The notes below the pieces were generated by a model. It was not told where the DNA came from. It was given only the letters and a program-made list of their open reading frames with translations, and searched no databases. 64,000 bases of DNA from the NCBI GenBank assembly GCA_964653555.1, contig CAZZFT010000009.1:1040-65039 (forward strand), given 5' to 3'. This DNA is from an uncultured Spirochaetales bacterium (lineage in GTDB: Bacteria; Myxococcota_A; UBA9160; SMWR01). The translations under genes and the position numbers were made by a program. How positions within the stretch are numbered: position 1 is the first letter of the stretch; each line of letters opens with the position of its first letter. Shown here piece after piece: positions 26,568-59,629 of this stretch.

Positions 26568-26601
26568 AGGATAGGCAGTCTAAGCTCTGGATTCGCGCCA
26601 G
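26568..26601 (+). repeat. Copy 1 of the AGGATAGGCAGT... terminal repeat (34 bp retained)
   Basis: aggataggcagtctaagctctggattcgcgccag. The outer boundary is identical to copies 2, 4 and 5, and CAGG upstream is shared with copy 2. Confidence 0.8.
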
Positions 26602-26900
26602 CCGGACCGATCGACAACCTCGTTCTCGTGGAGCTCGCCAGCGACGGCACCACGGCGGACCAGATCGTCCGCGTAGGCCGCGAAATCGTCGCCGAAGTCG
26701 AAGCCGGCGCAGAAGCTCCGGCCCGCGCCGCGCAGCACGATCACGCGGACCCCGGGATCGCGGTTGGCGCGGATCACCGCGGCCTCGATCTCGTCCGGCA
26801 TCGGCGACACGATCGTGTTGAGCCGCTCGGGACGGTTGAGCGTGATGCTGGAGACCGGACCGTCGGTCGCGTACAGCAGGGTCTCGAATGCCTTTTCCAT
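26580..26900 (-). pseudogene. Enoyl-CoA hydratase/isomerase (crotonase) family, N-terminal ~90 aa only
   Basis: MEKAFETLLYATDGPVSSITLNRPERLNT...VIVLRGAGRSFCAGFDFG, then it degenerates and stops inside or next to repeat copy 1. A full crotonase is ~260 aa. Confidence 0.7.
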
Positions 26901-26949
26901 GACTCTCTCCCTTCCTTTGTCTCGTTCGCTTGACGGAGTAAAGTGAATC

Positions 26950-26970
26950 TACTTCACTTTTCAAGAGCGA
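26950..26970. promoter_or_regulatory. 8-bp inverted repeat AAAGTGAA-N5-TTCACTTT in the divergent intergenic region (operator candidate)
   Basis: Perfect palindrome in an AT-richer 80-nt gap between the crotonase remnant and the SDR gene. TTGACG (-35-like) at 26940-26945. Confidence 0.3.
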
Positions 26971-27016
26971 CCAGCGCCGCGTGGAGGTTTCACACAGCCA
27001 GGTGTCGGAGCGCAGC

Positions 27017-27805
27017 GTGGGACTCGAAGGAAGGACGGCCCTGGTGACCGGCGCCGCGCGCGGGATCGGGCGCGTGATCGCCCGGGTTCTGGCGGAGTCG
27101 GGCGCGCGGGTGGCGCTGGCGGACCGCGACGCCGACGTGAACCGCACGGCGGAGGATCTGCGCGCGCGCGGATACCCGGCTTCCGGCGTCTGCTTCGACG
27201 TCGCTTCCGCTGACGCGGTGCGCGACGGTGTCGAGCGCGTGCGCAGCGAGCTAGGCGCCATCGACGTACTGATCAGCAACGCGGGCATCGTCGACCACAT
27301 CGCGCCGCTAACGAAGATGAAGCCGGAGCGCTGGGCCCGGGAGCTCGACGTCAATCTCGGGGGAGCCTTCCACCTGCTCCAGGCCCTGCTGCCCGGGATG
27401 GTCGAGCGGCGCCACGGCCGCATCGTCCTGATCTCGTCGGTGGCGGCCGTCGGCGGGCTCCATCACCAGGCCGGCTATGCCGCCAGCAAGGCGGGGCTGC
27501 TGGGCCTGGCCAAGACCGTCACCCTCGAGCACGCGCGCCATGGCATTACCTGCAACGTCGTGCTGCCGGGCCTGATCGAGACCGAGAACGTGGCGGCGAT
27601 GCCGGCGGAGATCCGCGAGGCCTCCATCGCGATCACCCCGGCGCGTCGGCTCGGCCGGATGGAAGAGGTCGCGCAGCTGGTGGCCTTCCTCGCGTCCGAC
27701 GAGGCGGGCTTCATCAACGGCGCCGAAATCCGGATCGACGGGGGCTTCAGCCTCAACACCGCGACGCTCGGCAGCCGCAAGGAGCTGCGCGGCGCGGGGT
27801 CCTGA
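27017..27805 (+). CDS. SDR-family oxidoreductase (FabG-like)
   Basis: TALVTGAARGIG, NAG, YAASKAG motifs. GTG 27017 follows GGAG; the ORF-track start GTG 26981 is the alternative. Confidence 0.85.
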   Translation: MGLEGRTALVTGAARGIGRVIARVLAESGARVALADRDADVNRTAEDLRARGYPASGVCFDVASADAVRDGVERVRSELGAIDVLISNAGIVDHIAPLTKMKPERWARELDVNLGGAFHLLQALLPGMVERRHGRIVLISSVAAVGGLHHQAGYAASKAGLLGLAKTVTLEHARHGITCNVVLPGLIETENVAAMPAEIREASIAITPARRLGRMEEVAQLVAFLASDEAGFINGAEIRIDGGFSLNTATLGSRKELRGAGS

Positions 27806-27857
27806 AGCCGCGGAAGTGCCGGCGCGAGCCGGCGCGCAAAGACGGAGGCCGGGATTC

Positions 27858-29462
27858 ATGGCGCAGCGATGCACGCAGTCGCAGATTCCGTTGAAGCCGG
27901 TCTACGGCCCGCGGGATCTCGAGGGATGGGATCCGGCCGAGAGGCTCGGGGATCCGGGCAGCTTCCCCTACACGCGCGGCGCGCGGGCCCACCCGGAGGA
28001 GCGCGGCGGCTGGATCCAGCGCGAGCTATCCGGCGAGGGCGATGCAGCGCGCTCGAACGCGCAGTTCAAGTATCTGCTCTCCAAAGGGCAGACGGGCCTC
28101 GACATCATCGGCGACACGCCCACCATGGGCTGCCTCGACCCGGACCACCCCTTCGCCGAGCACGCGGTCGGCACCCAGGGCGTGTCGCTGTGCCGCCTGG
28201 ACGACTACCGCGAGCTCTACCGCGATCTCCCGCTCGACAGGATCACGCTCTCCCATTCGCTCCAGCCGACCTTCGCGCTGGCGGGGCTCTACTGTGTCGC
28301 CCGCGAGCGCGGGATCCCACCGGCCAGCCTGCGGGGCTCCGTGCTCCAGGTGCCCTTCTATTGTGAAGACACCGGCTACGCGATCCACATGCCCTTCGAT
28401 CTGCGCCTGCGCCTGGCCGTGGATTCGATCGCCTTCTGCAGCCGGGAGATGCCCCGCTTCCACTCTTTTCTGGAGGACACCTACTACATCAGCGACGGGG
28501 GGCTCGACGCGGTCGAAGAGATGGCCCTCGGCTTCGTCGAGATCCGCGGCATCGTGCGGGCGCTGCTCGCGCGCGGCGTCGCAATCGACAGCTTCGCACC
28601 CCGGATCGCCATCCTCGTGAACTGCCGCATGGACTTCTTCGAGGAGATCGCCAAGATCCGAGCTACCCGTCGGCTCTTCGCCCGCATGCTGCGCGACGAG
28701 TTCGGCGCCCGGGATCCCCGCTCGCTGGCGGTGAACGTGGCCGCGCACACCTCCGGCCTCTCGCTCACCGCGCAGCAGCCCGTGAACAACGTGGTGCGCG
28801 GCGCCACCCAGGCCCTCGCGCTCGCGCTCGCCGGCGCCCAGGCCATCGAAGTCTCCACCTTCGACGAGGCCTTCCGGATTCCGAGCCCCGAGGCGCACCT
28901 GGTCGGGCTGCGCACCCAGCAGGTGATCCAGCTCGAATCGGGCGTGACGCGCGTCGCCGATCCCCTCGCCGGCTCCTACTTCGTGGAATCGCTCACCGAC
29001 GAGATGGAGCGGCGGATCGAGGAGCGGGTGCGCCAGATCGAGGCGGTGGGCGAACCCGCGCAGCTGTGCGAGTCCGGTTACTTCCGGAAGATCTTCCTGG
29101 GCGCGATGGAGCGCTACGCGCGGGAGCTGGGCGACGGCACGCTGCCCAAGGTCGGCGTGAACCAGCACGTGATCCCCGAGGAGGAGGACCTGCTGCTGCG
29201 CGAGGTGGCCGAGGAGAAGATCGAGCCGTTCCGGGAGCGGATCGCGGCGGTCCGCGAACACCGGAAGCGGCGCGATGCCGCGCAGGTGAGGAGCGCCCTC
29301 CAGTCGCTGCATGCCCGCGCCTCCGACCGCGCCGCCAACCTGATGGGAGACGTCGTGGCGGCCACGCAGGCCGGCGCCACGCTGGGAGAGATGGCCGGGG
29401 TGCTGCGCATGGCCTACGGCCAGCCCGCCGATCCCTTCGGATTGCTCGAGGATCCGATCTGA
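27858..29462 (+). CDS. Methylmalonyl-CoA mutase family, catalytic (large) subunit
   Basis: 534 aa from ATG 27858 (GGAGG RBS). ...PGSFPYTRG..., ...NNVVRGATQALALALAGAQAIEVSTFDEA... Confidence 0.85.
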   Translation: MAQRCTQSQIPLKPVYGPRDLEGWDPAERLGDPGSFPYTRGARAHPEERGGWIQRELSGEGDAARSNAQFKYLLSKGQTGLDIIGDTPTMGCLDPDHPFAEHAVGTQGVSLCRLDDYRELYRDLPLDRITLSHSLQPTFALAGLYCVARERGIPPASLRGSVLQVPFYCEDTGYAIHMPFDLRLRLAVDSIAFCSREMPRFHSFLEDTYYISDGGLDAVEEMALGFVEIRGIVRALLARGVAIDSFAPRIAILVNCRMDFFEEIAKIRATRRLFARMLRDEFGARDPRSLAVNVAAHTSGLSLTAQQPVNNVVRGATQALALALAGAQAIEVSTFDEAFRIPSPEAHLVGLRTQQVIQLESGVTRVADPLAGSYFVESLTDEMERRIEERVRQIEAVGEPAQLCESGYFRKIFLGAMERYARELGDGTLPKVGVNQHVIPEEEDLLLREVAEEKIEPFRERIAAVREHRKRRDAAQVRSALQSLHARASDRAANLMGDVVAATQAGATLGEMAGVLRMAYGQPADPFGLLEDPI

Positions 29463-29475
29463 TGGGAGACGCGCC

Positions 29476-38613: not shown

Positions 38614-39605
38614 GGCGAGCGCTCCGCGCCGGCAGGCCACACCGTGAACCGGTCGAACTCGCCCTCCACTCCCCGGCGAATCCGCTCGGGCGTGCGCACG
38701 CCCTGCGGCCTGCGGAGATCTTCGTAGCACGGCACGGACTCGTCCCGGTACAGGATGCCGACCGGGATCCGGTCTCGCAGCGCGGCGATCTCGCGGGCGC
38801 GCCCGAGGTCCCCGGGGTCGTGCACCTGCTGCCGCGGGCAGGTCTGGGACAGGCCGGGGCCGGGCTGGATCCCGTCCGCGTGCGTCAGCAGCAGGATGCT
38901 CTCCGGGTCGTGCAGCCACGGATCGAAGAGCAACGGCAGGAACTCCGGACAGCGTTGCAGCACGCGGACGAACGAGAGGCCCCTGTGGTGGAAGGCCCGG
39001 GCGAAGATCTCGTGGAAGAGCTCCGGAATCCAATCCACGGACTGTGCGACGAAGGAGACGTTGGCCACCCCGAGCGTGGTGCTGAGCGGGTCGATCGGCT
39101 CCAGCCAAGCGCCCCGCGGCGTGGTGCGGGTGACGAGCCCCTGCGGCGACGTGGGAGAGGCCTGCATCTTGGTCAACCCGAAGATGTGGTTGTCGTGCAG
39201 CACCACAGTCATGTTCATGTTGTATCGGATCGCGTGGATCCAATGGGCGGCCCCGATGCTGCAGCAGTCGCCGTCACCCATGTTCACGAACACGTGCAGG
39301 TCGGGGCGCCGGATCGCGACCCCCTCCGCGATCGGCAGCGCGCGGCCGTGGATCCCGTGGAAGCCGTAGGTCCGCATGTAGTGCGGGAAGCGGCTCGAGC
39401 AGCCGATCCCCGACACGAACACCACCCTCTCGGGCGGAAGCTGCTCCTCGCGGCACAGGCGCTGGATGCCGGCGAGCACCGCGTTGTCTCCGCACCCCGC
39501 GCACCAGCGGGGCGTCGCCGCCTGGTAGTCCTCGAGATCGTAGTGATCCGCCGCGGCCTCGCCGAGGCGCAGACACGTGGGGTTGAAGTGAAACGGCGCG
39601 CTCAC
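38610..39605 (-). CDS. korB: 2-oxoacid:ferredoxin oxidoreductase, beta (TPP-binding) subunit
   Basis: 331 aa, WCAGCGDNAVL, GIGCSSRFP, VNMGDGDCCSIG. The GTG overlaps the korA stop (GTGA) and follows a GGGAGG RBS. Confidence 0.85.
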   Translation of the reverse strand: MSAPFHFNPTCLRLGEAAADHYDLEDYQAATPRWCAGCGDNAVLAGIQRLCREEQLPPERVVFVSGIGCSSRFPHYMRTYGFHGIHGRALPIAEGVAIRRPDLHVFVNMGDGDCCSIGAAHWIHAIRYNMNMTVVLHDNHIFGLTKMQASPTSPQGLVTRTTPRGAWLEPIDPLSTTLGVANVSFVAQSVDWIPELFHEIFARAFHHRGLSFVRVLQRCPEFLPLLFDPWLHDPESILLLTHADGIQPGPGLSQTCPRQQVHDPGDLGRAREIAALRDRIPVGILYRDESVPCYEDLRRPQGVRTPERIRRGVEGEFDRFTVWPAGAERSP

Positions 39606-41476: not shown

Positions 41477-41501
41477 CCGATCCTTGCCCATCCTTCCGAT
41501 C

Positions 41502-43013: not shown

Positions 43014-43025
43014 GAGCTCCCGGCG

Positions 43026-44277: not shown

Positions 44278-44309
44278 TCGATGCCCCAATCGAGGGCCTC
44301 GATGCCCCA
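44278..44309. repeat. Direct repeat TCGATGCCCCA (x2) flanking the palindrome ATCGAGGGCCTCGAT
   Basis: Read directly: tcgatgcccca-atcgagggcc-tcgatgcccca. Lies ~150 nt upstream of the integrase fragment. Function unknown (arm-site or att-like?). Confidence 0.35.
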
Positions 44310-44640
44310 CCCCTCGGCCCGGGCGAGGCGGAGTGCCACAGGAGCGCGGGAGCCCGCGATCAGCCGGCCTCGCTCCAGGTTAGTTCCGCGCGACGGTGTT
44401 CCGCAGGTGCAGTCGAGCAGACGCCAAGATCGGCGTGGGTTCATGTGGTTCCCTCCACGAGGTTGCCGATTGACTTCGATGCAACGCGTCGAAGCAAATC
44501 GGGAACTACATCGGGAGGTCAGCGGTATGAAAAATGGCCTCTGGAGTAGTGTGATCGCGGCGTGCCTGGTGATGTGTTCCTTGCCAGCGATTGCCCAGAA
44601 CAGTCAAACGTAAAAACGCCAGATACCCGCTGCGGGGTTT

Positions 44641-44710
44641 CGCCGCGGGTTCAGTTGACGTGATGCCACGTCTCGGCCCCGGCGAGAATCCGGCTTGTAC
44701 TGCCTATCCT
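44641..44710 (-). repeat. Copy 3 of the terminal repeat, inverted orientation
   Basis: The reverse complement reads aggataggcagtacaagccggattctcgccggggccgagacgtggcatcacgtcaactgaacccgcggcg. The terminus is at 44710 and the interior points to lower coordinates. Confidence 0.8.
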
Positions 44711-44904
44711 AGAACCGCGCGCAGCTTCCACCAGTCCTGCATGCGCGGGGGCTACTACCAGTTCGGTGGGCCGACTGCTACGGCGCGTGTGCTCGATCGC
44801 TCGCTCGAAGCTCCCGTACCCGCAGGGTGTTCTTGACCTGGGTTGACCATCGGTGTTACACGGAAACGCGTGGTCAACACCGTCGTGACCCGAGGAGGTT
44901 TCCC

Positions 44905-45612: not shown

Positions 45613-45639
45613 GCCGCTACCTGCGTTTCACCCCGCATG

Positions 45640-46010
45640 GGGCGCCGCGGGCCCGGCGCGCCGATGCCGCTGTACCAGTAGCGGTTCTGAAGGCCGCGGC
45701 TCTCGAGCTCCGAGACCGGAAGCAGATCGAAGAGCTCGTAGCTCTTCGTCACGGTCAGGCTGGGATCCCGCTCGATCGTCAGCGTGCCGAACGGCAGCTC
45801 GTGGATCGGGGGCGCCTGGAGGCCGACCGTGCCCTCCTTCGTGCGCGCGAGGGCCAGCACCAGGGCGCGGTTGTAGAGGTCGGCAGCGACGTACTGGTGC
45901 GCGTCGAAGATGCCGCTCGGCTGGCGGCCGTCCTCCGCGAACAGGAACGAAGCCTTGTCGAATCGATTGCCGGCCCGAAGTTGGGCGTGGCCGCAGATCC
46001 CGTCGAGCGT
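45640..46010 (-). pseudogene. Start-less gene fragment of unknown family
   Basis: Protein-like frame ...GICGHAQLRAGNRFDKASFLFAEDGRQPSGIFDAHQYVAADLYNRALVLALARTKEGTV...LQNRYWYSGIGAP. It begins at the codon after the stop of the upstream OMP gene, and its 3' end overlaps the lipoprotein gene. Confidence 0.3.
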
Positions 46011-46607
46011 TCAGAAGCGGTACTGTAGGCCCGCTGTCCCCGACACGTAGTCGAGGTATTTCACGGAGCCGGTCGGCAACACGTACGAGGCCCCGACGGT
46101 CACGGTGATGTTCTTCGTGATGTAGACGTCGACCCCGGCGCCGAAGCGAGCGGCGAAGCCCGTCGCATCTGCGGAGGTTCCGAGCCCCAGAGAGTCGTTG
46201 AAATCTGCCCCGAGGACGCCCGCGCCGGCGAGCAGAAAGACCTGTCCATTCCTCCAATGCGGCAGGAATAGCTTGGCGTCGGCGGTCAAGCTCCAGACCT
46301 TGATATCGCCGATCTTTACAGGTCCTTCGACTTTGAATTTGGCCAGCCATTCGAAGTCCGCTTCCACGCCGAGGAGCGGATGGAATCGATAGCCCGCTCT
46401 CGCCTGCAATCCCGGGCTCAGATTGGTGTCGGTATTGACACCCGTTTCATCTTTGATCTCATCATCCAGCCTCACCATACCGGCCAGGGCGGCCGCGAAC
46501 CCGATGTACGGACCTGAACGATCGACGTAGCCATAGGGATTCCCGGCTGCGGCAGGCGATGGAACTGCAAGTGTCAACAAAGAAAAGATCAGTGCGAAAC
46601 GAATCAT
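46011..46607 (-). CDS. Outer-membrane beta-barrel protein (OmpA-like barrel / OMP_b-brl)
   Basis: 198 aa. Signal peptide MIRFALIFSLLTLAVPSPAAA, alternating beta-strand pattern, C-terminal ...GLQYRF. Confidence 0.7.
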   Translation of the reverse strand: MIRFALIFSLLTLAVPSPAAAGNPYGYVDRSGPYIGFAAALAGMVRLDDEIKDETGVNTDTNLSPGLQARAGYRFHPLLGVEADFEWLAKFKVEGPVKIGDIKVWSLTADAKLFLPHWRNGQVFLLAGAGVLGADFNDSLGLGTSADATGFAARFGAGVDVYITKNITVTVGASYVLPTGSVKYLDYVSGTAGLQYRF

Positions 46608-46630
46608 GCGTTCCCCCAAGAAGTGGCTAG

Positions 46631-47602
46631 TCACCCTGTCCCTGCGCGCCTTCGCTGTACTCCGATGCCGATCAGCCCCGCCGCGACGAGGAGGCCCGTA
46701 CCGGGCTCGGGGACGCTGGCGACGCGAAAACCCACCCAGTTGAACTCGTTCGATGGGTCGCCGGCGAACCGGCTCGTCACTCCGAGGCTGATCGGGCTGC
46801 CGTAGGTCTGGAACCCCCCGCCCCGCAGGCCACGGTCCGAGCCGATGATGATGGCCTCGGTCCACTCCCAGATATTCCCGCCCTGGTCGAAGGTGCCGTA
46901 GGGGCTCGCCGAGCCCGTGTAGCTGCCCACGTCGGTCAGGTCACCGACCGCGTTGAGGCAGTTGGCGGTGTTCGCCGTCGCCCCCGGCGCGGCGCACACG
47001 GTCTGCGTGTCCGTCCCGGCGGGATAGTCGAAGTAGCTCGTGGTCAGCGCGTCGTAGTACGCTGCCTTGTACCACTCGTCCTCGCTCGTGAGGAAGATGT
47101 TGGCGCCGGCGTTGCGCGTCACTGTCAGGCCGTTGCTCGGGGCCGCGGTCCCGCCGAGCAGCGTGTAGGCCCCCGTCTCCGTGTCCCCGCTCCCCTGGCC
47201 GTTGTGCAGCCAGTTCGCGAAGCGCAGGCTGTCGAAGAACGACACGTAGTTCACCGGCTTGTTCTCGCGGCCGCCGATGGCGCTGTACGTGAAGCTCCCC
47301 GAAGTGCCGCTGCGCGTGATGCCGCCGAAGCCCGAGCCCATGCCCGTGTTGTAGAGGCCCAGCGGGTCCGCGGCGGCCTTCGCGTTCAGGAACTCGGCAT
47401 ACTGGGCGTTCGTAACCTCATACTTCGAGATCTGATACACGTGGCCAACGGCACCGAAGCAGCCCAGCGCCCCTTGTACATCACAGGCGTTGCCCGGGTT
47501 GCCCACGGTGACCCAGTCGATCGCGACGGCCGAGGCCGCGTTGGGATCGATCAACAGCAAGAGAGCCAACAGCACGGAGTAGCGCGAAAGCAGGGCGGTC
47601 AT
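46631..47602 (-). CDS. FGE-sulfatase (SUMF1) domain protein with PEP-CTERM anchor
   Basis: ATG 47602. YEVTNAQYAEFLN, GGNIWEWTE, RGGGF. C-terminus VPEPGTGLLVAAGLIGIGVQRRR. Confidence 0.75.
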   Translation of the reverse strand: MTALLSRYSVLLALLLLIDPNAASAVAIDWVTVGNPGNACDVQGALGCFGAVGHVYQISKYEVTNAQYAEFLNAKAAADPLGLYNTGMGSGFGGITRSGTSGSFTYSAIGGRENKPVNYVSFFDSLRFANWLHNGQGSGDTETGAYTLLGGTAAPSNGLTVTRNAGANIFLTSEDEWYKAAYYDALTTSYFDYPAGTDTQTVCAAPGATANTANCLNAVGDLTDVGSYTGSASPYGTFDQGGNIWEWTEAIIIGSDRGLRGGGFQTYGSPISLGVTSRFAGDPSNEFNWVGFRVASVPEPGTGLLVAAGLIGIGVQRRRAGTG

Positions 47603-48252
47603 TGCCGTCTCCTCCCCGGTATCGTGCGTCCAGCCTACACCCGCTTGAGATACTGCTGGGAGGCACCAATCCAGTTCCAGAGCCCGCGGGGGGGCTAAGG
47701 TGACGATCCTCGACGCCATGGCCGACGTGGCTCTGTTTGGCCGCTGGTTCCAGGCCCCGACGAATAACCACGCCTTGAGCGCCAGAGTCCAGAGCGCATC
47801 ATTTGATCCCTCCGATCCTTTCTTTGTCGGTGCTGCATATCGCGTGCCATGCGAGTGGAGACTTTCCAACACAGCTCAATGGCTTTGGCGCGACATAGCG
47901 CCCCAACGGCCAAATTCGTGCGGCCAAACGCCCGCCGTGATTCTCGTCGAGGGTGAGCGGATCGCGGCGATGAACCCCGCCATCGTCCCGAAGAGGGCAG
48001 CAGGGTGACGCCGCCCAGGTCGATCTCGCGGCCCGGGTCCCCGGTCTGGCCGGGTGGGCTGCGGTCGGCCTGGCCCTGGCGGCGGGACGGGCGCGGGGGG
48101 CGGTCCGGCCCCGTTGAGGCGCCCGGCGGCATCCGGTTCGCCGGCTCAGCCGACGGAGTCGTCGGAGGCGCTCGGGAATCGGGCTCGATCCCGCTTGACC
48201 TCGAGGTCCTCCCGTGTTCCTCTTGGAAGTGTCACCTCACGAGAGGATCCGG

Positions 48253-48645
48253 ATGCGCCGCGCGACCCTCCTGGCATGGCTGACCCCACTCCTGACCGGG
48301 CCGCTGGCCCTGCTCGTGCTCGTACACCCGGTCGCCGCCGACGTCCAGGCCGCCACCGGACGCCTGGTCGGCCTGCTCGTCGTCGAGCCGACCTCGAACG
48401 AGTACGGCCTCTACCGCGGCTCGATCACCGTGGGCGACTCGATCGGCGGCTTCGCCACCTACCACTGGGGCGGATCGTACTGTCCCGGCAAGGATCTGTC
48501 GGAAGCCAGCGTGGCCGCTCTCCATCGGGCCCTCGATAACCCGCGCGTCGTGGTCCAGCCCTTCACCCTGAACGGGCAGGGCGGGGCGCTGTGCGTCGTG
48601 GCCGTCCGCTACATCCTGCGCAGCGAGCAGGGTCTGTTCCCGTAG
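48253..48645 (+). CDS. Small secreted hypothetical protein
   Basis: 130 aa, signal peptide MRRATLLAWLTPLLTGPLALLVLVHPVAAD. Confidence 0.5.
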   Translation: MRRATLLAWLTPLLTGPLALLVLVHPVAADVQAATGRLVGLLVVEPTSNEYGLYRGSITVGDSIGGFATYHWGGSYCPGKDLSEASVAALHRALDNPRVVVQPFTLNGQGGALCVVAVRYILRSEQGLFP

Positions 48646-48658
48646 GCGGGACGTGGGC

Positions 48659-49465
48659 ATGCGCCGCGCCCGCCGCGTGCTTCCGCTGCTCGCGACCGCG
48701 CTCGTCGCGCCCGCCGAGGCTTTACAGCTCTCCGTGGGCGACTGGGTGATCGCCGATCCCGATGCGAACGCGGTCTATCGCGTCGATCCCAACGTCGGCA
48801 GGCCCGAGCCGATCTCGCAGGACGGTCTCTTCCGCCAGCCGACGGGCGTGGCCATCGAGGCATCGGGCGACATCCTCGTCGCCGATCCGGAGGCCAACGC
48901 GATCTTCCGGGTCGACCCCGCCACCGGGGACCAGAGCGTGGTTTCCTCCTCCGGCAGCTTCCGCTGGCCGACCGGTGTCGCCGTCGACGCGGGCGGCGAT
49001 CTGCTGGTGAGCGATCCGGACGCCGACGTGGTCTTTCGTGTCGATCCCGCGACGGGCGACCAGACGCTCGACACCGTCGCAGCCGACGCGGGCGCCGTCT
49101 TCGCGGCCGGCGTGACGGTGGAGTCGTCAGGCGACTACGTCCTCGCCGACCCGGACGCGGCCGGCCTGCGGCGTTGGGATCCCGACGCGACCACGGGATC
49201 GACGGTCTCCGCCGGCGGGCTCTTCCTCTGGCCCACCGATGCGACGGTCGACGACGGCGACGATCTGCTCGTCGCGGATCCGGATGCGAACGGATTCGTG
49301 CGCGTGGATCCGGCGACCGGAGACCAGACGAGCGAAGGCCCCGGGGATGCGTTCCTCTACCCGACCGGAATCGCCTTCGTGCCCGAGCCGGGCGCCACCT
49401 GGCCGCTGGCGGGAGGCCTGGCGATGCTCGCCCTCGCGGGGTGGGCCAGGCGTTCCCGGACCTGA
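48659..49465 (+). CDS. NHL-type beta-propeller repeat protein with PEP-CTERM anchor
   Basis: Repeated ...PTGVA.D..GD.LV.DPDAN.VFRVDPATGDQ... units. C-terminus VPEPGATWPLAGGLAMLALAGWARRSR. GTG 48653 is the alternative start. Confidence 0.6.
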   Translation: MRRARRVLPLLATALVAPAEALQLSVGDWVIADPDANAVYRVDPNVGRPEPISQDGLFRQPTGVAIEASGDILVADPEANAIFRVDPATGDQSVVSSSGSFRWPTGVAVDAGGDLLVSDPDADVVFRVDPATGDQTLDTVAADAGAVFAAGVTVESSGDYVLADPDAAGLRRWDPDATTGSTVSAGGLFLWPTDATVDDGDDLLVADPDANGFVRVDPATGDQTSEGPGDAFLYPTGIAFVPEPGATWPLAGGLAMLALAGWARRSRT

Positions 49466-49557
49466 AGGCGTCTTCGCTCCAGAACGAGCCCGCTGGGCTT
49501 GCGGACGCCGCCGGCTCGCCAGGGTCCGGTCCAGCGTGTCATGATGCGCGCAACACG

Positions 49558-49870
49558 CGTGCGGTCGCCTCCCGCGGCGACTGGATGGGGGTTTGTCCTG
49601 GCGTCCGGAGATCGCGAGCTCGAGATCGTCGTCTGGGGAGCCACCGGCTTCACGGGGCGGCTCGTCGCCGAGTACCTGCTCGAGCGCTACGGCACCGAGT
49701 CCTTCCGCTGGGCTCTCGGCGGCCGGCAGCTGCGCAAGCTCGAGAGCGTGCGCGACGCGCTCGGCCCGGCCGCCGCGGTGCTCCCGCTCGTGACGGGCGA
49801 CGCCGCCGACCCCGGATCCATGGCCGCGCTGGCCTGCCGCACGCGCGTCGTGTGCACCACGGTGGGTCCG
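49558..49870 (+). pseudogene. Saccharopine-dehydrogenase-like / trans-acting enoyl reductase N-terminal fragment, cut off by repeat copy 4
   Basis: ELEIVVWGATGFTGRLVAEYLLERYG...LPLVTGDAADPGSMAALACRTRVVCTTVGP, then the repeat. Such proteins are ~400 aa. The start codon is uncertain. Confidence 0.6.
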
Positions 49871-49927
49871 AGGATAGGCAGTATCAGCTCGCGCCAGGGC
49901 CGAGAAGCAGAGTTATGTCAACCGCGG
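49871..49927 (+). repeat. Copy 4 of the terminal repeat (internal 9-nt gap)
   Basis: aggataggcagtatcagctcgcgccagggccgagaagcagagttatgtcaaccgcgg. Confidence 0.8.
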
Positions 49928-50211
49928 AGTTCGACTGGAGCTTCATCGCGGACCGCGACGTGACCGCTGGCGACGGCAAGTTGGGCTCGGGCAACCGGCG
50001 CAACGACGCCACCACCGCCCAGACCGATCCGCCGCTCGGCCAGCCCCTCAAGGTGAGGTTTCCGCTCGAGGCGAAGCCCGAGATCAACATCGTCGGCGAC
50101 TCGGTCTGGCTCCACGCGGACCTCTACGGGTGCGGAACCAAGCAGGACTCGATCAAGCGCGACATCCAGCGCCTCTACTCCGCCGAGGGCGAGGCGCCCT
50201 GGTCGATCTGA
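49915..50211 (+). CDS. Hypothetical 98-aa ORF initiating at the ATG inside repeat copy 4 (possibly a captured C-terminal gene fragment)
   Basis: MSTAEFDWSFIADRDVTAGDG...INIVGDSVWLHADLYGCGTKQDSIKRDIQRLYSAEGEAPWSI*. No family recognised. Confidence 0.3.
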   Translation: MSTAEFDWSFIADRDVTAGDGKLGSGNRRNDATTAQTDPPLGQPLKVRFPLEAKPEINIVGDSVWLHADLYGCGTKQDSIKRDIQRLYSAEGEAPWSI

Positions 50212-50386
50212 GCGGATCCGGCGAATCTGCCCGTCCGCCCCCGGGGATGCTTCGGCGTCCGCTGGGCCCCGGCGCCGCCCTGATCCCCCGACCGCCCCGC
50301 TCTCGCAGCTCGGGACCCATGTTCCCGGGCCCGCGGTCTAGACTGGTCCCCGGGCCCGCGGAGGGCCTACACCCGGGAGGGGTCCC

Positions 50387-52774
50387 ATGCGCTGCATCCG
50401 GAATGGCATCGGCGCGCTGGCCCTTGCCCTTGCGAGTGGTTCGGGGGCGGTCACCTTCAGCGTGAACTCCGACGACGACGCTGCGGACAACAACGTCGGC
50501 AACGGCTCGTGCTGGACCGGCTCCGTCGTCTCTGGACCGGGCGGGCTGCTGATTCCGGAGTGCACCCTCCGCGCGGCGATCATGGAGACCGACGCGCTCG
50601 GCAGCAGTGACACCATCGTGTTCGGGTCCTCCATCCCGACGGATGGTCTCGGCTTCGTGCGCATCTCACCCGGCTCGCCCCTCCCCGCGATCACCTCCCC
50701 GCTCGTGATCGACGGCACCACGGCTCCGGGCTACGACACCGGCGATCCCGCGCAGGTGCCGATCATCCAGATCGACGGCAGCGGCGCGGGATTCACACCG
50801 GGTCTCACCCTGAGCGTCGCCGACGGCAGCGAGATCCACGCCCTCGCGCTCCACGACTTCTCGAGCCACGGCCTCCACATCCTGACCAGCGACCACGTCG
50901 TCGAGGGCTGCCACATCGGCATCACGAGCGGCACGACAGTGGCTGGGAACGGCGGCGACGGCATCCAGATCGCCGTCACGTCGCAGCGCGTACGGATCGG
51001 TCCCTTCTGCACCCCGACCCTGGGCTGTGTCGGACGCGGAAACGTCGTCTCCGGAAACGCCGGAGACGGCATCGACGTCCGCGGCCTGTTGACGATCATC
51101 AACGGCAACCGCATCGGCACCCGCGCCGACGGACTCGGCATCGTCGCCCTCCTGGCCCCGACCGGAAACGGAGGCTGGGGCGTCCGGACGCTGCCGGATG
51201 CTCTGGGGCTGAGCTCGACCCAGGTCGGGTCGTTCGTCGAGACCATCGACGGCCCCGAGACGTCCGGGAACCTGATCTCGGGGAACGGAGCGGGGGGCGT
51301 CCTCTTCGAGGGCAGCGGCAACCGGGTACAGGCAAGCCTCATCGGAACGCTGATCTCGGGCTCGGGAGACGCCGGAAACACGGGCCCGGGGGTCGAGGTC
51401 CGTGGCCACAACAGCTTCGTGGGACCGTCGCCGAACTTTGCCTTCGCCGGCAACGTCATCTCCGGGAACGACGGCCCGGGCGTCCTCGTGAGCCCGTCCA
51501 CCTATACGCCGACGTTCAACATCTCGATCCAGACCAGCATGATCGGCACCGACAGTACCGGCAGCGTGGCGATCGCCAACGACGGAGGCGGCATCGAGCT
51601 GACGACCGGAAGCGAAGTCGTCATCTTCGAGAACACGATCTCGGGAAACCTGCTCTACGGCATCGCGGGTTCGAGCGAGACCGTCTACATCTTCGGCAAC
51701 CGCATTGGCACGAACGCCTCGGGTCAATGCCTCGGCAACGAGGGCAACGGCATCCTCGCCCAGGGTCCCGGCTGGCTGATCGGCTCCCCTCCGGCCGGTC
51801 CCGTCGGGAGCTCCCCGAACGTGGTGGGATGCAACGGCGACCGGGGCATCTTCATCGATTTCGGCGCTCCCGATGCCCTCGTGCAGGCGAACTACGTGGG
51901 TACGGACGCCCTCGGCGCCGCCCTCGGCAACCTTTCCCACGGCATCGAGATCGGCTCCAGCGACGCGCAGATCGGCGGCTCGATGGACGCGGGTGAAGGC
52001 AACGTCATCGGGTTCAATGAGCACGGCATCTTCACCAATTCGTCCTCGTTCGGAAGCCGCATCCGGGGCAACCACATCGGAACCGACGCCGCCGCAGACG
52101 ACCTCGGAAACACGCTGAGCGGCGTCTTCATCGGCAGCAGCGCGCAGCACCGGGTGGGCGACCTGTCGCTCGCCGGCGGCCAGAACGAGATCGCCTTCAA
52201 CGGCATGGGCGGTGTGTACGTCTTCGGCGCGACAGCCGTGACGAACCCGATCCGGGGCAACTCGATCCACGACAACACGGGCCTGGGCATCGAACTCGAC
52301 CCGCTCGGCGCAAATCCCAACGACCCCACCGACGCCGACAGCGGACCGAACCGGCTCCAGAACTACCCGGTGCTCGACCCGGCGAACGCGACCTACGACA
52401 CGGTGCTCGACCAGGTCTCGATCGACTTCGACATCGACTCGCAGCCCCCCTTCTCCACCTTCCCGCTGGCCATCGACTTCTACGTGGCCGATGCCTCGGG
52501 GGAGGGTGAGGCCTGGATCGGAAGCGTGAGCGTCGGCGCTCCCGGCCCCGCCACGGCGATCTTCGCGCCGACCCCGGGCGTGGATCTCCTGGGCGTGAAC
52601 GTGGTGGCGACGGCGACCACCGGCGACTTCGGTGGCGAGGGCAGCACGAGCGAGTTCAGCGCGTCGGTGCCCCTGCCCGAGCCTTCCGTGGCGTCGGGTC
52701 TGGCCGCGGGCGCGCTCCTGCTGCGCGCGTTCGCCGTCGCCCGCCGCCGGCGGATCCCGGGAGACAGTCGATGA
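50387..52774 (+). CDS. CSLREA-motif, right-handed beta-helix repeat protein with PEP-CTERM anchor
   Basis: 795 aa. Signal peptide, CTLRAAIMETDA (CSLREA-like), many G-N/G-D beta-helix repeats. C-terminus VPLPEPSVASGLAAGALLLRAFAVARRRR. Confidence 0.75.
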   Translation: MRCIRNGIGALALALASGSGAVTFSVNSDDDAADNNVGNGSCWTGSVVSGPGGLLIPECTLRAAIMETDALGSSDTIVFGSSIPTDGLGFVRISPGSPLPAITSPLVIDGTTAPGYDTGDPAQVPIIQIDGSGAGFTPGLTLSVADGSEIHALALHDFSSHGLHILTSDHVVEGCHIGITSGTTVAGNGGDGIQIAVTSQRVRIGPFCTPTLGCVGRGNVVSGNAGDGIDVRGLLTIINGNRIGTRADGLGIVALLAPTGNGGWGVRTLPDALGLSSTQVGSFVETIDGPETSGNLISGNGAGGVLFEGSGNRVQASLIGTLISGSGDAGNTGPGVEVRGHNSFVGPSPNFAFAGNVISGNDGPGVLVSPSTYTPTFNISIQTSMIGTDSTGSVAIANDGGGIELTTGSEVVIFENTISGNLLYGIAGSSETVYIFGNRIGTNASGQCLGNEGNGILAQGPGWLIGSPPAGPVGSSPNVVGCNGDRGIFIDFGAPDALVQANYVGTDALGAALGNLSHGIEIGSSDAQIGGSMDAGEGNVIGFNEHGIFTNSSSFGSRIRGNHIGTDAAADDLGNTLSGVFIGSSAQHRVGDLSLAGGQNEIAFNGMGGVYVFGATAVTNPIRGNSIHDNTGLGIELDPLGANPNDPTDADSGPNRLQNYPVLDPANATYDTVLDQVSIDFDIDSQPPFSTFPLAIDFYVADASGEGEAWIGSVSVGAPGPATAIFAPTPGVDLLGVNVVATATTGDFGGEGSTSEFSASVPLPEPSVASGLAAGALLLRAFAVARRRRIPGDSR

Positions 52775-52917
52775 CCGCTTCTTCCCTGTAGAGCGCCGCG
52801 ATCGGGGGTCCCACGGACCCTTACGTGACGCCCCTACCGGCACGTCGAGCCAGAACGCAGCTCGAATCTCCACGCCGCGGCGCACGGACTTCAGCCCGCG
52901 ACCGTCGCGGACCAGCT

Positions 52918-54219
52918 CTAGATGTCGATTACCAGATCTTTCCGGGGGCGAGAGCAGCAAGTCAACAGGTTTCCGGCCGCCGGAGGCTCGAGCGGTTCGG
53001 GATCATACTTCACCGACCCAGAGATCAACCCGCACTCGCACGTATGGCAAACCCCGGTCCGGCAAGACCACCGGACCGGGACGTCACAGGCTTCGGCGAG
53101 TTCCAGCAGGCTGTGGAACTTCGAGTCCCAGGAAACCGTAAGCCCGGCGCGAGCAAATGAAATTCTTGGACCTTCGCCGGGCGACCCGGCAGGGGCGTGC
53201 GGTAGGCGGCGCGGCGCCTTCTTCACACCCGGCGTAAGGGAGTTGCCTGAACCGAAAATCTCCGTGTGGATGCGATCACGGACCACGCCCCAACCAGCGA
53301 GCCCGGCCGTGAAGTCCTCAAGGAAGGCGGGAGGGCCGCACAGATAAAACTCGCATTCGCGGGGTACGCCCAGTTTTTGGAGGACCGTGACAGTCAGCCG
53401 GCCGGCAGCATCGTAGTCAACGCCCAGCCGGTCAGTCGCGTCGGGCCGGCTGTACTGGACATGGCTTCGGGCGTGGGGCAGCTTAGCCAGCAAATCGCGT
53501 GCCTCTCGGGCAAAGGGATGATCCAGGCGGTTGCGGGCTCCATAGATCCACCAGACCGGGCGCGGCGATGCGTGTGCTGCTAGCGCGTGGAGCATCGCCA
53601 TCACCGGAGTCGCGCCCACGCCGGCGCTCAACAGCACCACAGGAGACTCGCCGGGTCGCAGGATGAAGGCGCCGCGGGGTGCGCTGACATCCAGGACATC
53701 GCCTGCACGAAGCCGCGTGCTCAGGTAAGTGCTGGCGATTCCGTGCGGTTCCTCCTTAATGGTTATGCGATAACGACCGGCATCCGGCAGATCGGACAGC
53801 GAGTAGCTGCGCAAGACCGGAGGCGGGTCGCCTTGGGGACGGAGTCGCAACACCACGAACTGCCCGGGCAGAGGGACGGTCAAAGGACGATCGTCCACCG
53901 GCTCCAGCACCAGTGAGACAACACTGCTGCTCTCGCGATCCATGCTGGCCACTCGCAGAGGCCGGAATCCGGGGACAGCCGTGAGCATCTGCTCAGGTAG
54001 CGCTAGTCCGGCATTCCCTGTGCGCGACCCCGGCTGCGTCATCTGCCGGAGAAGAGCCTCAAAGGAAGACTTCCAGCCCGGGCTCAGGGACGGAATGCGC
54101 AAAGCCCGCTCAAGCTCTTCTTTGGCGGGTCCGGGAAGGTAGAGCAGCCCGTCGACCGCGGCGACCGTGAGGCGTTCAGGGCCCTCGGCGACTTTGACGA
54201 TTTCATCGCTGGCGCCCAC
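52918..54219 (-). CDS. FNR-like FAD/NAD-binding + C-terminal 2Fe-2S ferredoxin module (3' part of a frameshifted MOSC fusion gene)
   Basis: RSYSLS, LLSAGVGATPV, C-terminal CRTGVCHTCECGL. The N-terminus (G)ASDEIVKVAEGPERLTV is the normal continuation of the MOSC domain ORF. Confidence 0.75.
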   Translation of the reverse strand: MGASDEIVKVAEGPERLTVAAVDGLLYLPGPAKEELERALRIPSLSPGWKSSFEALLRQMTQPGSRTGNAGLALPEQMLTAVPGFRPLRVASMDRESSSVVSLVLEPVDDRPLTVPLPGQFVVLRLRPQGDPPPVLRSYSLSDLPDAGRYRITIKEEPHGIASTYLSTRLRAGDVLDVSAPRGAFILRPGESPVVLLSAGVGATPVMAMLHALAAHASPRPVWWIYGARNRLDHPFAREARDLLAKLPHARSHVQYSRPDATDRLGVDYDAAGRLTVTVLQKLGVPRECEFYLCGPPAFLEDFTAGLAGWGVVRDRIHTEIFGSGNSLTPGVKKAPRRLPHAPAGSPGEGPRISFARAGLTVSWDSKFHSLLELAEACDVPVRWSCRTGVCHTCECGLISGSVKYDPEPLEPPAAGNLLTCCSRPRKDLVIDI

Positions 54220-56830: not shown

Positions 56831-56866
56831 AGTCCCCACTGTCCCGGGACGCGGAAGACCGAACGG

Positions 56867-57058
56867 CTACGGAGCAGAAGACTGACCAGCATTCTGCAGG
56901 ACTAGCGTAAGAAGCGCCTGAGCTGCGGCTGTTGACGATGCGGGATTCTGCCCGGTGACCAGACGACCGTCGACAATCGCAAAGCTTTCCCAATCTGGAG
57001 CCTTCTCATAGCGGCCGCCGATTCCTTTGAGCTCGTCCTCTACAAGGAACGGCTCGCG
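56867..57058 (-). pseudogene. DJ-1/PfpI (type 1 glutamine amidotransferase-like) C-terminal fragment
   Basis: FLVEDELKGIGGRYEKAPDWESFAIVDGRLVTGQNPASSTAAAQALL. The nucleophile-elbow part is missing. Confidence 0.55.
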
Positions 57059-57207
57059 TTCCCCAGGGCGAACCCGATCGGCGCCCTCTCGCTTCAACGC
57101 GCTGCGTCGTGATTGAGACGACGGCACTTGCGTCTTGACTTCGACCCCCGATGCGGTGTGGAGTCGGGGGAGCCGGCCCGATGGGGAGGCCGGGCGGAGG
57201 AGAAGTC

Positions 57208-59157
57208 ATGAGAATTCGAACCGCGGGGCTCGCCGTCCTCGCCATCGCGCTTGCCGCCGTCTCCGTCCCCAAGGGATGCGGGCGGAACATGGTGCTCGCC
57301 GGCACGGCATCGCGCTCCGTGCTGCCGCTCGTAGACGGCAGCCTTGGCTACCTCGACGCCGGGTTTCCCGATCGCCAGGACCCCACCGACCCCGGCATCG
57401 TCGTGCCCGCCTGGGACGACGGCCGCATCGCGGTGGGCAACGGCGACAACTTCTCGGCGTGGGTCCACGACGACCTGCGGGTCACGGCGCTGGCCATCGA
57501 CGACCCGCGCAGCGCGGACCTCGTCGTGTTCGTGGCGAGCGACCTCTACATGATCTTCCGCACCGACGGCGATGAGATCCGCGCCAAGGCCGCGGCCATG
57601 CTGCCCCCCGGGCTGGCCAATCGCATGCGCGTCCTCATCAGCGCCAACCACAACCACCACGGGCCGGACACCGCCTTCGACGTCAACCACTCCTGGTACG
57701 AGCACATGACGGACCAGGCCGCAGCCGCCGTGGCGGAGGCGGTGCTGTCGCGCCGGCCGGCGCGTCTGAGGGTGGCCGCCGGCGAGCACTGGTTCGGCAT
57801 GAACGACAGCACCGACCCGCAGATCTTCGACCCGCGGCTGAACGCCCTGCAGGTGGTGGACGTGCACGGTGACGTGATCGCCACCGCCGTGCAGTGGAAC
57901 AACCACCCCGAGGGCACCCTGGGCTACCACCCGCCGCAGTCGGAGATCGCCGACGACTGCGTGGTGCTCGGCCTCTCCGGCAGCGACTGCGACGCCGAGG
58001 GCCGCTACTTCACGGCCGACTACCCGGGCGTGCTGCGCCAGGATCTCCAGGCCCGCTACGGCGGCGAGGTGCTCTACATGAATGGAGCCCTCGGCGTGCT
58101 GATCGGGCCCGGCGGCGCGCAGGTCTGGGAGGTGACCGAGGACCATCCGCTGGGCAACCAGATGGTGGCGCCCGCCGGCGCCGAGGCGGCCGGGGGTGGC
58201 AGCGACTACACGGCCCGCAACTTCCGCCGCACCGCCATCGTCGGCGAGCAGCTGGCGCTGGCGGTCGAGCGCATCCTCGACGACGCCGCGCCGGTCGCCG
58301 AGCCGCGGGTCTCGTACGACGTGGAGCCGTTCTACACGCGGCTCAGCAACATCGGCTTCCGCTTCCTGCTCGTGGTCGATCCGAACACGGGCTTTACCGC
58401 GCTCGGCCACAACGTTGCGGTGATGTACACCTGCGATCTCCCCGCCAGCGACGCCACCTGCACGCCGGACGGGGCGGCCGACGAGCCGGACCCGCTGCTC
58501 GGGTCGATCCGCGTGGGCGACCATCTGAAGAGCGCCGTCGAGTACGTGCGGATCGGCGAGGTGGGCATGATGTTCCTGCCCGGCGAGATCCCGGGCGAGC
58601 TCACCGCCGGCCTGCCGTCGGGATTCCGCTCGCACCCGGAGGACTGGTACGAGGAGCCGCCGGGCCGGCACGCCTTCGGCGCCGACTACACCATCCCGGG
58701 CTACACGTCGAACCGCATGGACGACGCCTACCGCTGGACGATCGGCCTGGGCAGCGACGAGCTCGGGTACTTCATCCCGATCTCGAACTTCCGGGTGCTG
58801 TGCGTCGCGGACCAGCTCGCCGGGGACGGCGCCTGTCAACAGCTGTACGACTTCGGCGTCATCGACTTCCCCGATTCCGTCGCCGGCAGCACCTGCAAGG
58901 CCATCACCGAGGACCCCTCGCTGCTGGCGAACTACCCGCCGGACGCCGCGACTGCGCTAGCCGCCAGCTGCCGCTACGGCCAGGCCCTGGGAGAGGCCGA
59001 CGGACACTACGAGGAGACGAACGCGGCCGGCTGGGACATGGCCCAGGACATGATGGATGCCGTGGCCGCCATCACCGGCAACGACGACCCGACCGAGGTG
59101 AACCCCGACTTCCCCGGTTGGTGGCAGGGCTACCTGCCGCCGGGTGACCTGCCGTAG
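57208..59157 (+). CDS. Secreted neutral/alkaline-ceramidase-like hydrolase
   Basis: ATG 57208 after GGAGGAGAAG. Signal/lipobox-like AIALAAVSVPKGCG. ISANHNHHGPD metal-site-like motif. The family call is tentative. Confidence 0.45.
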   Translation: MRIRTAGLAVLAIALAAVSVPKGCGRNMVLAGTASRSVLPLVDGSLGYLDAGFPDRQDPTDPGIVVPAWDDGRIAVGNGDNFSAWVHDDLRVTALAIDDPRSADLVVFVASDLYMIFRTDGDEIRAKAAAMLPPGLANRMRVLISANHNHHGPDTAFDVNHSWYEHMTDQAAAAVAEAVLSRRPARLRVAAGEHWFGMNDSTDPQIFDPRLNALQVVDVHGDVIATAVQWNNHPEGTLGYHPPQSEIADDCVVLGLSGSDCDAEGRYFTADYPGVLRQDLQARYGGEVLYMNGALGVLIGPGGAQVWEVTEDHPLGNQMVAPAGAEAAGGGSDYTARNFRRTAIVGEQLALAVERILDDAAPVAEPRVSYDVEPFYTRLSNIGFRFLLVVDPNTGFTALGHNVAVMYTCDLPASDATCTPDGAADEPDPLLGSIRVGDHLKSAVEYVRIGEVGMMFLPGEIPGELTAGLPSGFRSHPEDWYEEPPGRHAFGADYTIPGYTSNRMDDAYRWTIGLGSDELGYFIPISNFRVLCVADQLAGDGACQQLYDFGVIDFPDSVAGSTCKAITEDPSLLANYPPDAATALAASCRYGQALGEADGHYEETNAAGWDMAQDMMDAVAAITGNDDPTEVNPDFPGWWQGYLPPGDLP

Positions 59158-59553
59158 AGGGCGCACCACCCTGGGGCGCTCGATCGAGGGCGCCGGCCCG
59201 GGGCTCGTCCGGGCCGGCGCGGATCGACGCGAGCACCCCTCTGCCGCGGGTCGCCTGCAGGCTCCCGGCCCTTCATCTGCAATGCCGATGTGTCGACCCG
59301 TACCCCCCAGCAGTGCGGCAACGTGCAGCTCGCACTCGGTCGCTACGGTTCGTCGGCCTCATGCTCCTCCTTGGCACGGTGCCGTCCGCACTCTCGGTAG
59401 CCGAACGTGGCGCGAGCCCGGCCAACTTCGTGGTCATCTTGATCCCGGGCCTTCCGGGCCCCGTGTGTCTTGTGGGCGGTCTACGCTCCACGGCACCCGT
59501 GCGACACTAAGGGGGCTTGGCGCGCAGTCACGGTGCGGCACACTGCGGGTCGC

Positions 59554-59629
59554 AGGATAGGCAGTATAAGCTGTGAATTCTCGCCAGGGCCGACAAGTAG
59601 GGCTATGTCAACCGTGCTGCCCCGCGGCG
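59554..59629 (+). repeat. Copy 5 of the terminal repeat
   Basis: aggataggcagtataagctgtgaattctcgccagggccgacaagtagggctatgtcaaccgtgctgccccgcggcg. Confidence 0.8.

Follow-up and report, generated by a model that had tools for sequence, protein, structure and literature searches.

A dispersed repeat at gene breaks in an uncultured Spirochaetales bacterium is probably an orphan oriIS module of the IS91/ISCR family

A short dispersed repeat is found at five gene breaks in a 64,000-nucleotide stretch of DNA from an uncultured Spirochaetales bacterium (NCBI GenBank assembly GCA_964653555.1, contig CAZZFT010000009.1, positions 1,040 to 65,039; hereafter the window). We conclude, with a probability of roughly 85%, that this repeat is the oriIS module, that is, the right-end, replication-origin module, of an insertion sequence (IS) of the IS91/ISCR family. 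The assignment rests on the signature at its terminus and on a unit lying in the same orientation downstream of an intact transposase gene on L010, a sister contig from the metagenome that also yielded the window. A first-pass annotation of the window had interpreted the constant edge of the repeat as the terminus of a transposable element, and the oriIS signature and the full-length element on L010 bear this out. It had not recognised the terminus from any IS family, and we can now place it as the oriIS end of IS91/ISCR. The element belongs to a known family, and what is unusual about it is its small and numerous orphan oriIS units.

The lead for this identification was the end …CTTCCTATAC…, which we presumed to be shared by ISCR and IS91 elements and which was then confirmed against published sequences. 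The minus strand of the unit ends in …GCTTATACTGCCTATCCT (also written TTATACTGCCTATCCT or …GAGCTTATACTGCCTATCCT). Reference ends were read directly from plasmid NZ_CP022696 for ISCR1 (L014) and from NZ_CP070541 for an ISCR2-like element (L015). The oriIS of ISCR1 is 5'-GTGGTTTATACTTCCTATACCC (PMC13023784), and its terminus in NZ_CP022696 is TTATACTTCCTATACCC, as published in the same source. The ISCR2-like terminus is TTTATACTTCCTATACTC, and ISCR27 has the oriIS GCGGTTGAACTTCCTATACC with the terminus GAACTTCCTATACC (PMC8894482). The stretch TTATACT-G-CCTAT-CC of the unit equals the ISCR1 oriIS at 14 of 16 terminal positions, exactly where the copies cease to match, and alignment A3 shows CCTAT-C unchanged in every sequence, the clinical ISCRs and the copies in the window alike.

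A full-length element is present on L010, where a tblastn search with the ISCR1 transposase first matched positions 6889-8424 (E 2e-98). The open reading frame (ORF) at 6862-8442 encodes an intact transposase of 526 amino acids that matches Zn_Tnp_IS91 (2e-21) and Y2_Tnp (4.9e-27) and is 37% identical to the ISCR1 transposase over 520 amino acids (E 5e-110). A unit lies at L010 8670-8747, 228-305 bp past the stop codon and co-oriented with the transposase gene, as the oriIS is in ISCR1; the distance from stop codon to terminus is 305 bp in L010, 230 bp in ISCR1 and 228 bp in the ISCR2-like element. The first-pass annotation had proposed looking for a full-length element with two inverted ends, an intact transposase and target-site duplications. 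The intact transposase was found, inverted ends and duplications were not, and a search that relied on the latter two features would have missed the element because the family has neither.

At E below 1e-40, databases contain more than 5,400 relatives of the L010 transposase. Identity reaches 60-74% in the closest of them, which share both domains without exception, and the few named ones are labelled as Planctomycetota, Deltaproteobacteria or Thermoleophilia metagenome-assembled genomes. Among NCBIfam models ISCR_clade_Ia fits best, with 351 bits where the cut-off is 925, and transpos_IS91 scores 110.9 bits, a little short of its cut-off of 125. Because these scores fall below the cut-offs for ISCR clade Ia and IS91, we assign the element to the family but to a separate clade. 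Two groups of relatives, L018 (71% identical transposase) and L019-L024 (69%), have a common layout 202-236 bp after the stop codon that consists of GCTTGAAATCG, a GC-rich palindrome, T/CTGACA, (A)CT(T)CTCGG and GCTTGTATCACCTATCCT or GCTTGAACGCCCTATCC, followed by divergent flanks. Had the repeat been internal in full-length relatives, as the first-pass annotation considered, the terminus reading would have failed; instead the flanks of L019-L024 diverge exactly past CCTATCC(C), and on L010 the unit lies downstream of the transposase. L019-L024 (JGI, Joint Genome Institute, samples 3300041024-3300041087) have an identical transposase and left flank (a Rieske oxygenase gene) with six different sequences past the ori terminus. 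These six right flanks mean either that the ori end truly turns over or that the repeat made the assembly ambiguous.

To locate copies in the window (~70% G+C), we used a 34-nt query that tolerated up to three mismatches, a scan for repeats and a profile derived from full-length copies. The 34-nt search found copies c1 at 26568, c2 at 30370 and c5 at 59554, with none expected from 100 shuffles. The profile search recovered these and two more (E values of 1e-27 for c2, 6e-26 for c5, 1e-17 for c3, 3e-15 for c4 and 1e-8 for c1). These are the same five copies that the first-pass annotation had listed, and neither the profile search nor the repeat scan found a sixth in the window. The first 12 nt of the outer edge, AGGATAGGCAGT, are invariant in all five, as had been reported.

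Copy c1 (26568..26601, minus strand) is a partial orphan oriIS comprising the outer 34 bp, with its ori terminus at 26568. Copy c2 (30370..30447, minus strand) is a complete 78-bp unit, possibly reaching 30454, whose ori terminus at 30370 adjoins a cut MaoC-like gene; it is 96-97% identical to units in L004, L008, L009, L010 and L013. An inner extent of more than 300 bp had been claimed for c2, but its similarity to other copies ends at about 30447-30454, that is at 78-85 bp, as in most copies elsewhere. Copy c3 (about 44626..44710, plus strand) is inverted and belongs to a diverged subtype that is ~78% identical to the remaining copies. A-GAAC follows its ori terminus at 44710, its inner end has the GC-rich palindrome in duplicate, and it resembles L006 and the L018-type end (GAGAATCCGGCTTGTACTGCCTATCCT). 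A 28-codon, signal-peptide-like ORF (MKNGLWSSVIAACLVMCSLPAIAQNSQT) at 44528-44614 stops about 10 bp from the inner end of c3. Copy c4 (49871..49927, minus strand) has a 7-bp internal deletion and a shortened inner end, and its ori terminus at 49871 is followed, in IS orientation, by C-GGAC. Copy c5 (59554..59629, minus strand) is a 76-bp unit, 91% identical to c2, with its ori terminus at 59554 followed, in IS orientation, by G-CGAC. Four of the five copies are direct. The window therefore holds solely transposase-less oriIS modules, two of them complete (76-78 bp), one of a diverged subtype and two shortened. Beyond the edge, c1 and c2 share 4 nt, CAGG (26564-26567 at c1), so that the direct repeat made up of c1 and the outer part of c2 is 38 bp long (26564-26601 and 30366-30403) and takes in the CAGG outside the ori terminus. 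The 3.76-kb block between these direct repeats contains a crotonase stub, a short-chain dehydrogenase/reductase (SDR) gene, methylmalonyl-CoA mutase subunits and the cut MaoC gene.

Copies beyond the window came from one pattern scan of JGI metagenome contigs, which gave 10 loci, seven genuine and three chance matches. Six of the seven genuine loci are from a single metagenome, Ga0315553, in which L004, L010 and L011 are parts of one 104-kb contig, L009 and L013 make up one 18.6-kb contig and L008 is a 10-kb contig. Among 185,579 species genomes, a strict pattern for the repeat matched nowhere and a relaxed one matched once. Positions 1-1698 of L009 are identical to window 62303-64000 (1,698 bp) and the contig runs on past the window end, so the L009/L013 contig adds four units to give nine copies in ~50 kb. 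The units are strongly clustered: the window's first 26 kb is free of them, the 33 kb that follow contain five, and another four lie in the 10 kb after that, on the overlapping contig. Across the unit-rich region (window 1-26000 compared with 26500-64000 and L009/L013) the G+C content falls from ~73% to 62-70%. No other dispersed repeat family was found in the window or the sister loci.

Our copy statistics cover 17 copies, taken from the window and the sister contigs. Most are discrete units of 78-81 bp, sharp at both ends and 96-100% identical between unrelated loci, and at least 13 near-identical copies occur in roughly 190 kb. Variable inner deletions had been proposed as the main pattern, but 11-13 of the 17 copies share one inner boundary at 78-81 bp (up to ~87), and even the 34-bp form recurs: c1 and a copy at L009 2196 stop at the identical base (…CGCGCCAG; 26601/26602 and L009 2229/2230) in unrelated places. 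The coincidence suggests that breakage or cleavage is favoured 34 nt from the terminus. Damaged copies are c1 (34 bp), c4 (internal deletions) and the copy at L013 1762 (~60 bp). The units start with (A)CCCG at the CCCGCCGCGGG palindrome, where no consistent tetranucleotide was found. In full-length elements conservation carries on inward past this boundary (GCTTGAAATC), whereas solo units are without that stretch and start at the palindrome.

The unit has no terminal inverted repeats and no inverted partner in the window or at the sister loci. The 17 copies showed no target duplication, but the test has little power, as the flanks are mostly unrelated DNA with no empty site. A miniature inverted-repeat transposable element, with inverted repeats or target duplications, was rejected as neither was found. 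Past the ori terminus the flank starts with C in 14 of the 17 copies, and CGA[CT] follows the terminus directly in six (binomial P = 2e-5, given a background CGA frequency of 0.036). In four more copies, including c3, c4 and c5, GGAC, CGAC or GAAC is offset by 1 nt, and the flanks of the relatives L019-L024 read CGAC (twice) and CAAG. These preferred tetranucleotides match the target set of IS801, which is GAAC, GGAC, CAAG and CGAC (PMC3189936).

Gene breaks occur on both the inner and the outer sides of units, and the pairs of flanks are never contiguous. On the outer side, the first-pass annotation had reported three ORFs cut in mid-domain, and this is shown for one of them. The MaoC-like (ChsH-type) enoyl-CoA hydratase gene at 30042..30369 (plus strand) is cut near residue 118 of ~178 by c2, at its ori terminus. 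The fragment matches ChsH1/ChsH2 (PDB 4w78_A, residues 19-118 of 178, E 4e-24), and an intact 171-aa paralogue at L010 4045-4557, 86% identical, continues beyond the break. Truncation of the other two ORFs, which end at 26567 and 49870, is plausible. At 49870 it is argued from ORF length and from high G+C content at third codon positions right up to the junction; the N-terminal NAD(P)-binding fragment here (49499..49870, plus strand), which ends at the ori terminus of c4, matches NAD_binding_10 weakly (E 1e-3) and has no PDB match, its saccharopine-dehydrogenase-like label being that of the first-pass annotation.

On the inner side the copies do join unrelated sequences, as previously described, but genes are broken here too and not at the outer edge only. 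An enoyl-CoA hydratase N-terminal fragment (26602..26948, minus strand; Pfam ECH_1 positions 6-64 of 251, E 1e-11) runs into c1, and an internal fragment of an aspartate 4-decarboxylase (59630..59956, plus strand; NCBIfam TIGR03801 positions 40-149 of 521, E 5.7e-34) joins c5, in frame with an ATG inside the unit. On sister contigs, a unit joins the C-terminal part of an efflux pump to an internal piece of a nitronate-monooxygenase-like gene (names read from translations, without a family search), and on L010 two units bracket a 219-bp N-terminal rpiB fragment. A tblastn search of ~190 kb found no partner halves of the MaoC, rpiB, crotonase, decarboxylase or other fragments.

A short repeat could itself have led the assembler to join unrelated flanks, in which case the gene breaks would be artefacts. 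The window proteins were located on a 73,938-bp contig present in NCBI, JGI and Logan, and we used the Logan contigs of run SRR9710542 (k=31, a different assembler) as an independent assembly. These contigs end 22 bp before c2, and one of them (L002) begins 10 bp inside c5; c2 and other copies also have stretches in common that are identical over as many as 47 bases, and L019-L024, with one left flank and six right flanks in different samples, show the kind of pattern that misassembly could give. However, L003 (window 25607-30347) crosses the c1 junction and L001 (window 39390-53013) those of c3 and c4, both unbranched, and since c1, c3 and c4 each have private substitutions or deletions that tie the left flank to the right flank, these three junctions are sound. 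A 78-bp unit is also shorter than one read and so resolvable by spanning reads, and the pattern of truncation on both sides recurs in several JGI contigs. Exact-protein look-ups returned no second assembly across c2. Misassembly is excluded for c1, c3 and c4 and is a possibility at c2 and c5; as an explanation of the gene breaks as a whole we consider it improbable. Less credible still, and contradicted by the evidence, is a model in which a DDE (rve-type) IS carries the repeat as its terminal inverted repeats. The first-pass annotation, in which this model is implicit, had c2 continue into an rve-type transposase remnant, and an N-terminal DDE-type remnant does lie directly inside c2; c2 and c3 are also mutually inverted, 14.3 kb apart. 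The remnant (30448..30690, minus strand; translation …WHRQGFRRYW…GRPPIAAKTRALIARMATENP) is a degenerate one from a different, IS481/IS3-like element. It has no family match of its own, and it is 47% identical over 30 aa to a fragment on L004 that matches transpos_IS481 and transpos_IS3. Its N-terminus reads outward toward the terminus, which is impossible in an intact IS, and the similarity among copies ends before it. Neither target duplications nor an inverted-repeat pair were found, the terminus agrees with oriIS, and the transposase that goes with it is a Y2 enzyme. A single 14.3-kb element inside the MaoC-like gene, bounded by c2 and c3, was also rejected, as the sequence past c3 does not resume that gene. 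An origin as a site-specific recombination site (attC- or att-like), a structured RNA, a tRNA derivative or a promoter module is just as hard to credit. The discrete size of ~78 bp, the direct orientation of four of the five window copies, a DUF6538 integrase remnant nearby and the TTGACA and TATACT hexamers and ATG within the unit might suggest one of these. Yet ARAGORN found no tRNA or transfer-messenger RNA gene, an origin suggested by the ~76-bp size; there was no Rfam match at gathering score in the window, and matches around the L010 units were noise. Single-strand folds were not clearly better than those of shuffled sequences (z -0.6 to -2.7), with no stem covarying between subtypes. 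No sigma-70-type promoter or terminator was called, no consensus sites were found and TTGACA and TATACT are 37 nt apart. A check by eye for attC, dif or sigma-54 motifs found spacing and symmetry unsuited; the unit is without attC-like end symmetry and no intact recombinase is adjacent.

How the oriIS units came to stand alone is a separate question, and here we lean, by a little, towards miniature one-ended derivatives as their main source. The shared inner boundary and the recurrent 34-bp form point to defined miniature derivatives rather than random decay. Elements of this family transpose by a rolling-circle route that an HUH-Y2 transposase catalyses. In the mechanism we propose, replication would start at the ori terminus and stop early at the GC-rich palindrome ~78 nt inside, which would leave a unit near the minimal oriIS. 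The small product would be inserted beside a CGAY, GGAC or GAAC tetranucleotide by transposase supplied in trans. Missed termination would carry inner-side DNA, often the rest of a previously hit gene, to the next site, and new insertions, including those at resident oriIS junctions, would leave units between unrelated gene fragments. Recombination between dispersed copies may add deletions and inversions. Such a mechanism would give a constant outer edge, no inverted repeats or target duplications, and gene breaks on both sides. Close parallels have been described. In IS801, right-end miniatures of 229, 360 and 679 nt made up 26% of trapped insertions and upstream gene fragments were also moved (PMC3189936), and in IS91 the last 82 bp of the right end suffice for oriIS function, with one-ended transposition in 1-14% of events (PMC13181058). 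On L010, the IS ending in …CCTATCCT is followed by CGAT, rpiB(3-75) and a unit that again ends in …CCTATCCT and is followed by CGAC. This array fits the insertion of cargo plus oriIS at a resident oriIS junction. The two oriIS units of the tandem array (L010 8670-9050), which lies upstream of an SDR gene, are 100% identical.

The serious alternative, which we hold to be appreciably less probable, is pure decay: full-length copies at each site would have been reduced to their oriIS ends by deletion and recombination between copies, with neither miniature transposition nor cargo capture. Shortened and damaged copies do exist (c1, c4 and L013 1762), the region has other relics that carry no unit (two DDE stubs, an integrase N-terminus/Fe-S fusion and frameshifted genes), and Bardaji et al. 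held that most genomic IS801 fragments arise from reorganisations (PMC3189936). Independent deletions, however, would not be expected to end at one inner position in 11-13 copies, nor twice at exactly 34 bp; the copies are 96-100% identical, compared with 86-90% for neighbouring paralogous genes; and no internal IS sequence (GCTTGAAATC… or tnpA) was found beside any solo unit. A bolder version of the miniature-derivative origin is tentative and, to our minds, doubtful: among non-autonomous rolling-circle elements active in bacteria, the 78-81 nt unit may be the smallest yet seen, a bare oriIS with its own stop signal that is mobilised in trans, prefers resident oriIS junctions and builds arrays of gene fragments and oriIS units that shuffle pieces of metabolic genes. 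The nine units in ~50 kb, the L010 array and the unit ATGs in frame with fragments at c4 and c5 are consistent with this, the ATG being in frame with the cargo in two of four testable cases, which is not significant.

Several observations weigh against the family assignment or against the origin we favour for the solo units. A tblastn search of the window found no IS91/ISCR-type transposase, in line with the first-pass view of the copies as transposase-less relics at gene breaks, and no terIS-like left end was found in the window either. Only one full-length copy was found, on a contig possibly of another genome, and with this one copy the left boundary is tentative: one candidate on L010 is 6778-6802 (GGGTGAAC-ACGCGGCCTCGCGGGCC), which is conserved in L017 and L018, and the other is 6675-6690. 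Seven of the 17 copies are without a preferred tetranucleotide, non-canonical flanks being those of c1 and c2 (CCTG) and of four units on sister contigs, and no known ter-like tetranucleotide accounts for the recurrent 34-bp form. The junctions at c2 and c5 are supported by a single assembly, and the window does not contain the lost 3' part of the MaoC-like gene. We recovered neither an empty site nor an intact target for the solo units, so no 78-bp miniature was directly seen to have inserted.

Compared with ISCR1, ISCR2 and ISCR27, the L010 element has the same Zn_Tnp_IS91 plus Y2_Tnp architecture, with transposases 37-41% identical, the same oriIS signature TTATACTNCCTAT(A)CC 200-300 bp downstream of the transposase gene and unrelated DNA beside the element. 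It differs in that its transposase falls in a separate environmental clade with more than 5,000 relatives (351 compared with 925 bits), its host DNA is ~70% G+C and has no antibiotic-resistance link, and its oriIS module is mostly found as 78-81 bp orphans at high local density. Transposition of ISCR elements has never been demonstrated experimentally (PMC6218425). With IS801 (Bardaji et al. 2011, PMC3189936), the units share right-end-only derivatives with a common ori terminus and differing left ends, the target tetranucleotides GAAC, GGAC and CGAC, the presumed mobilisation of neighbouring gene fragments, the lack of inverted repeats and, as far as the flanks show, that of target duplications. 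The IS801 miniatures, at 229-679 nt, were caught in an entrapment assay, whereas the units here are 78-81 nt and their mobility is predicted from sequence. IS91, IS801, IS1294 and IS1294b use CTTG, GTTC, GTTC and GTCC, respectively, do not duplicate their targets and differ at their two ends, oriIS and terIS, which have subterminal palindromes (PMC13181058). Features of IS91 and IS1294 comparable to the unit are the tetranucleotide beside oriIS, a right end of ~82 bp that is sufficient, subterminal palindromes and one-ended events (PMC13181058); the preferred tetranucleotide here, however, is CGAY rather than CTTG or GTTC, and no orf121-like gene was noted. The units also invite comparison with a group of eukaryotic elements. 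Helitrons are rolling-circle HUH transposons of eukaryotes, whose leaky termination captures gene fragments and builds chimeric arrays. The likeness to Helitrons would be one of analogy only, in the rolling-circle HUH mode, and they differ in having a Rep-helicase fusion and hosts of another domain.

Three further readings of single features were rejected. An in-frame 26-codon insertion, as in the palindromic elements of Rickettsia, was considered as two forward frames of the unit are open, but the flanks are unrelated genes. Apparent transposase homology reaching into the unit (…ENP/RRGAARL) was judged to be chance. Copy c5 is not an insertion into a glyoxalase-type gene, as its outer flank does not continue the stub at ~59951-60033. 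This glyoxalase/VOC-type N-terminal stub (minus strand; weak match, E 0.004-0.006) adjoins the far end of the aspartate 4-decarboxylase fragment, and the gene break between the two carries no unit.

Other disrupted genes lie between the copies. A second N-terminal stub of the same DDE (IS481/IS3-like) transposase as that beside c2 lies at 34700-34935 (minus strand; …ELALRQQLAVYVQRHPRPRLLPLDRAFWVFFRGLWPPW), and the two stubs (34700-34935 and 30586-30648) are 92% identical over 64 bp, in the same orientation and 4.3 kb apart. The ORF at 43026-44138 (minus strand) fuses DUF6538, a phage-type integrase N-terminal domain, to the C-terminal iron-sulphur (Fe-S) domain of a PyrK/NfnA-like protein, and the joint carries no unit. 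A haemolysin-III family gene at 35683-36322 is split over two frames (profile positions 4-67 and 73-224), as a frameshifted pseudogene or through sequencing error, and an ORF at 49915-50211 and a beta-helix ORF at 50342-52774 are likewise in different frames.

The assignment places a previously unrecognised repeat in a family and offers a guide for searches, which should look for one conserved end with no inverted repeats and no duplications. For annotation, orphan oriIS units mark pseudogenes and rearrangement joints, and short-k-mer assemblies break there. The analysis also brings out an environmental, high-G+C, ISCR-like lineage, remote from the clinical ISCRs, that leaves many bare oriIS modules where gene fragments meet. 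Should the miniatures prove mobile, they would provide a natural system for one-ended rolling-circle transposition and the shuffling of gene fragments in bacteria, and if the unit were indeed the smallest such element, it would be a bacterial counterpart of gene-fragment capture by Helitrons.

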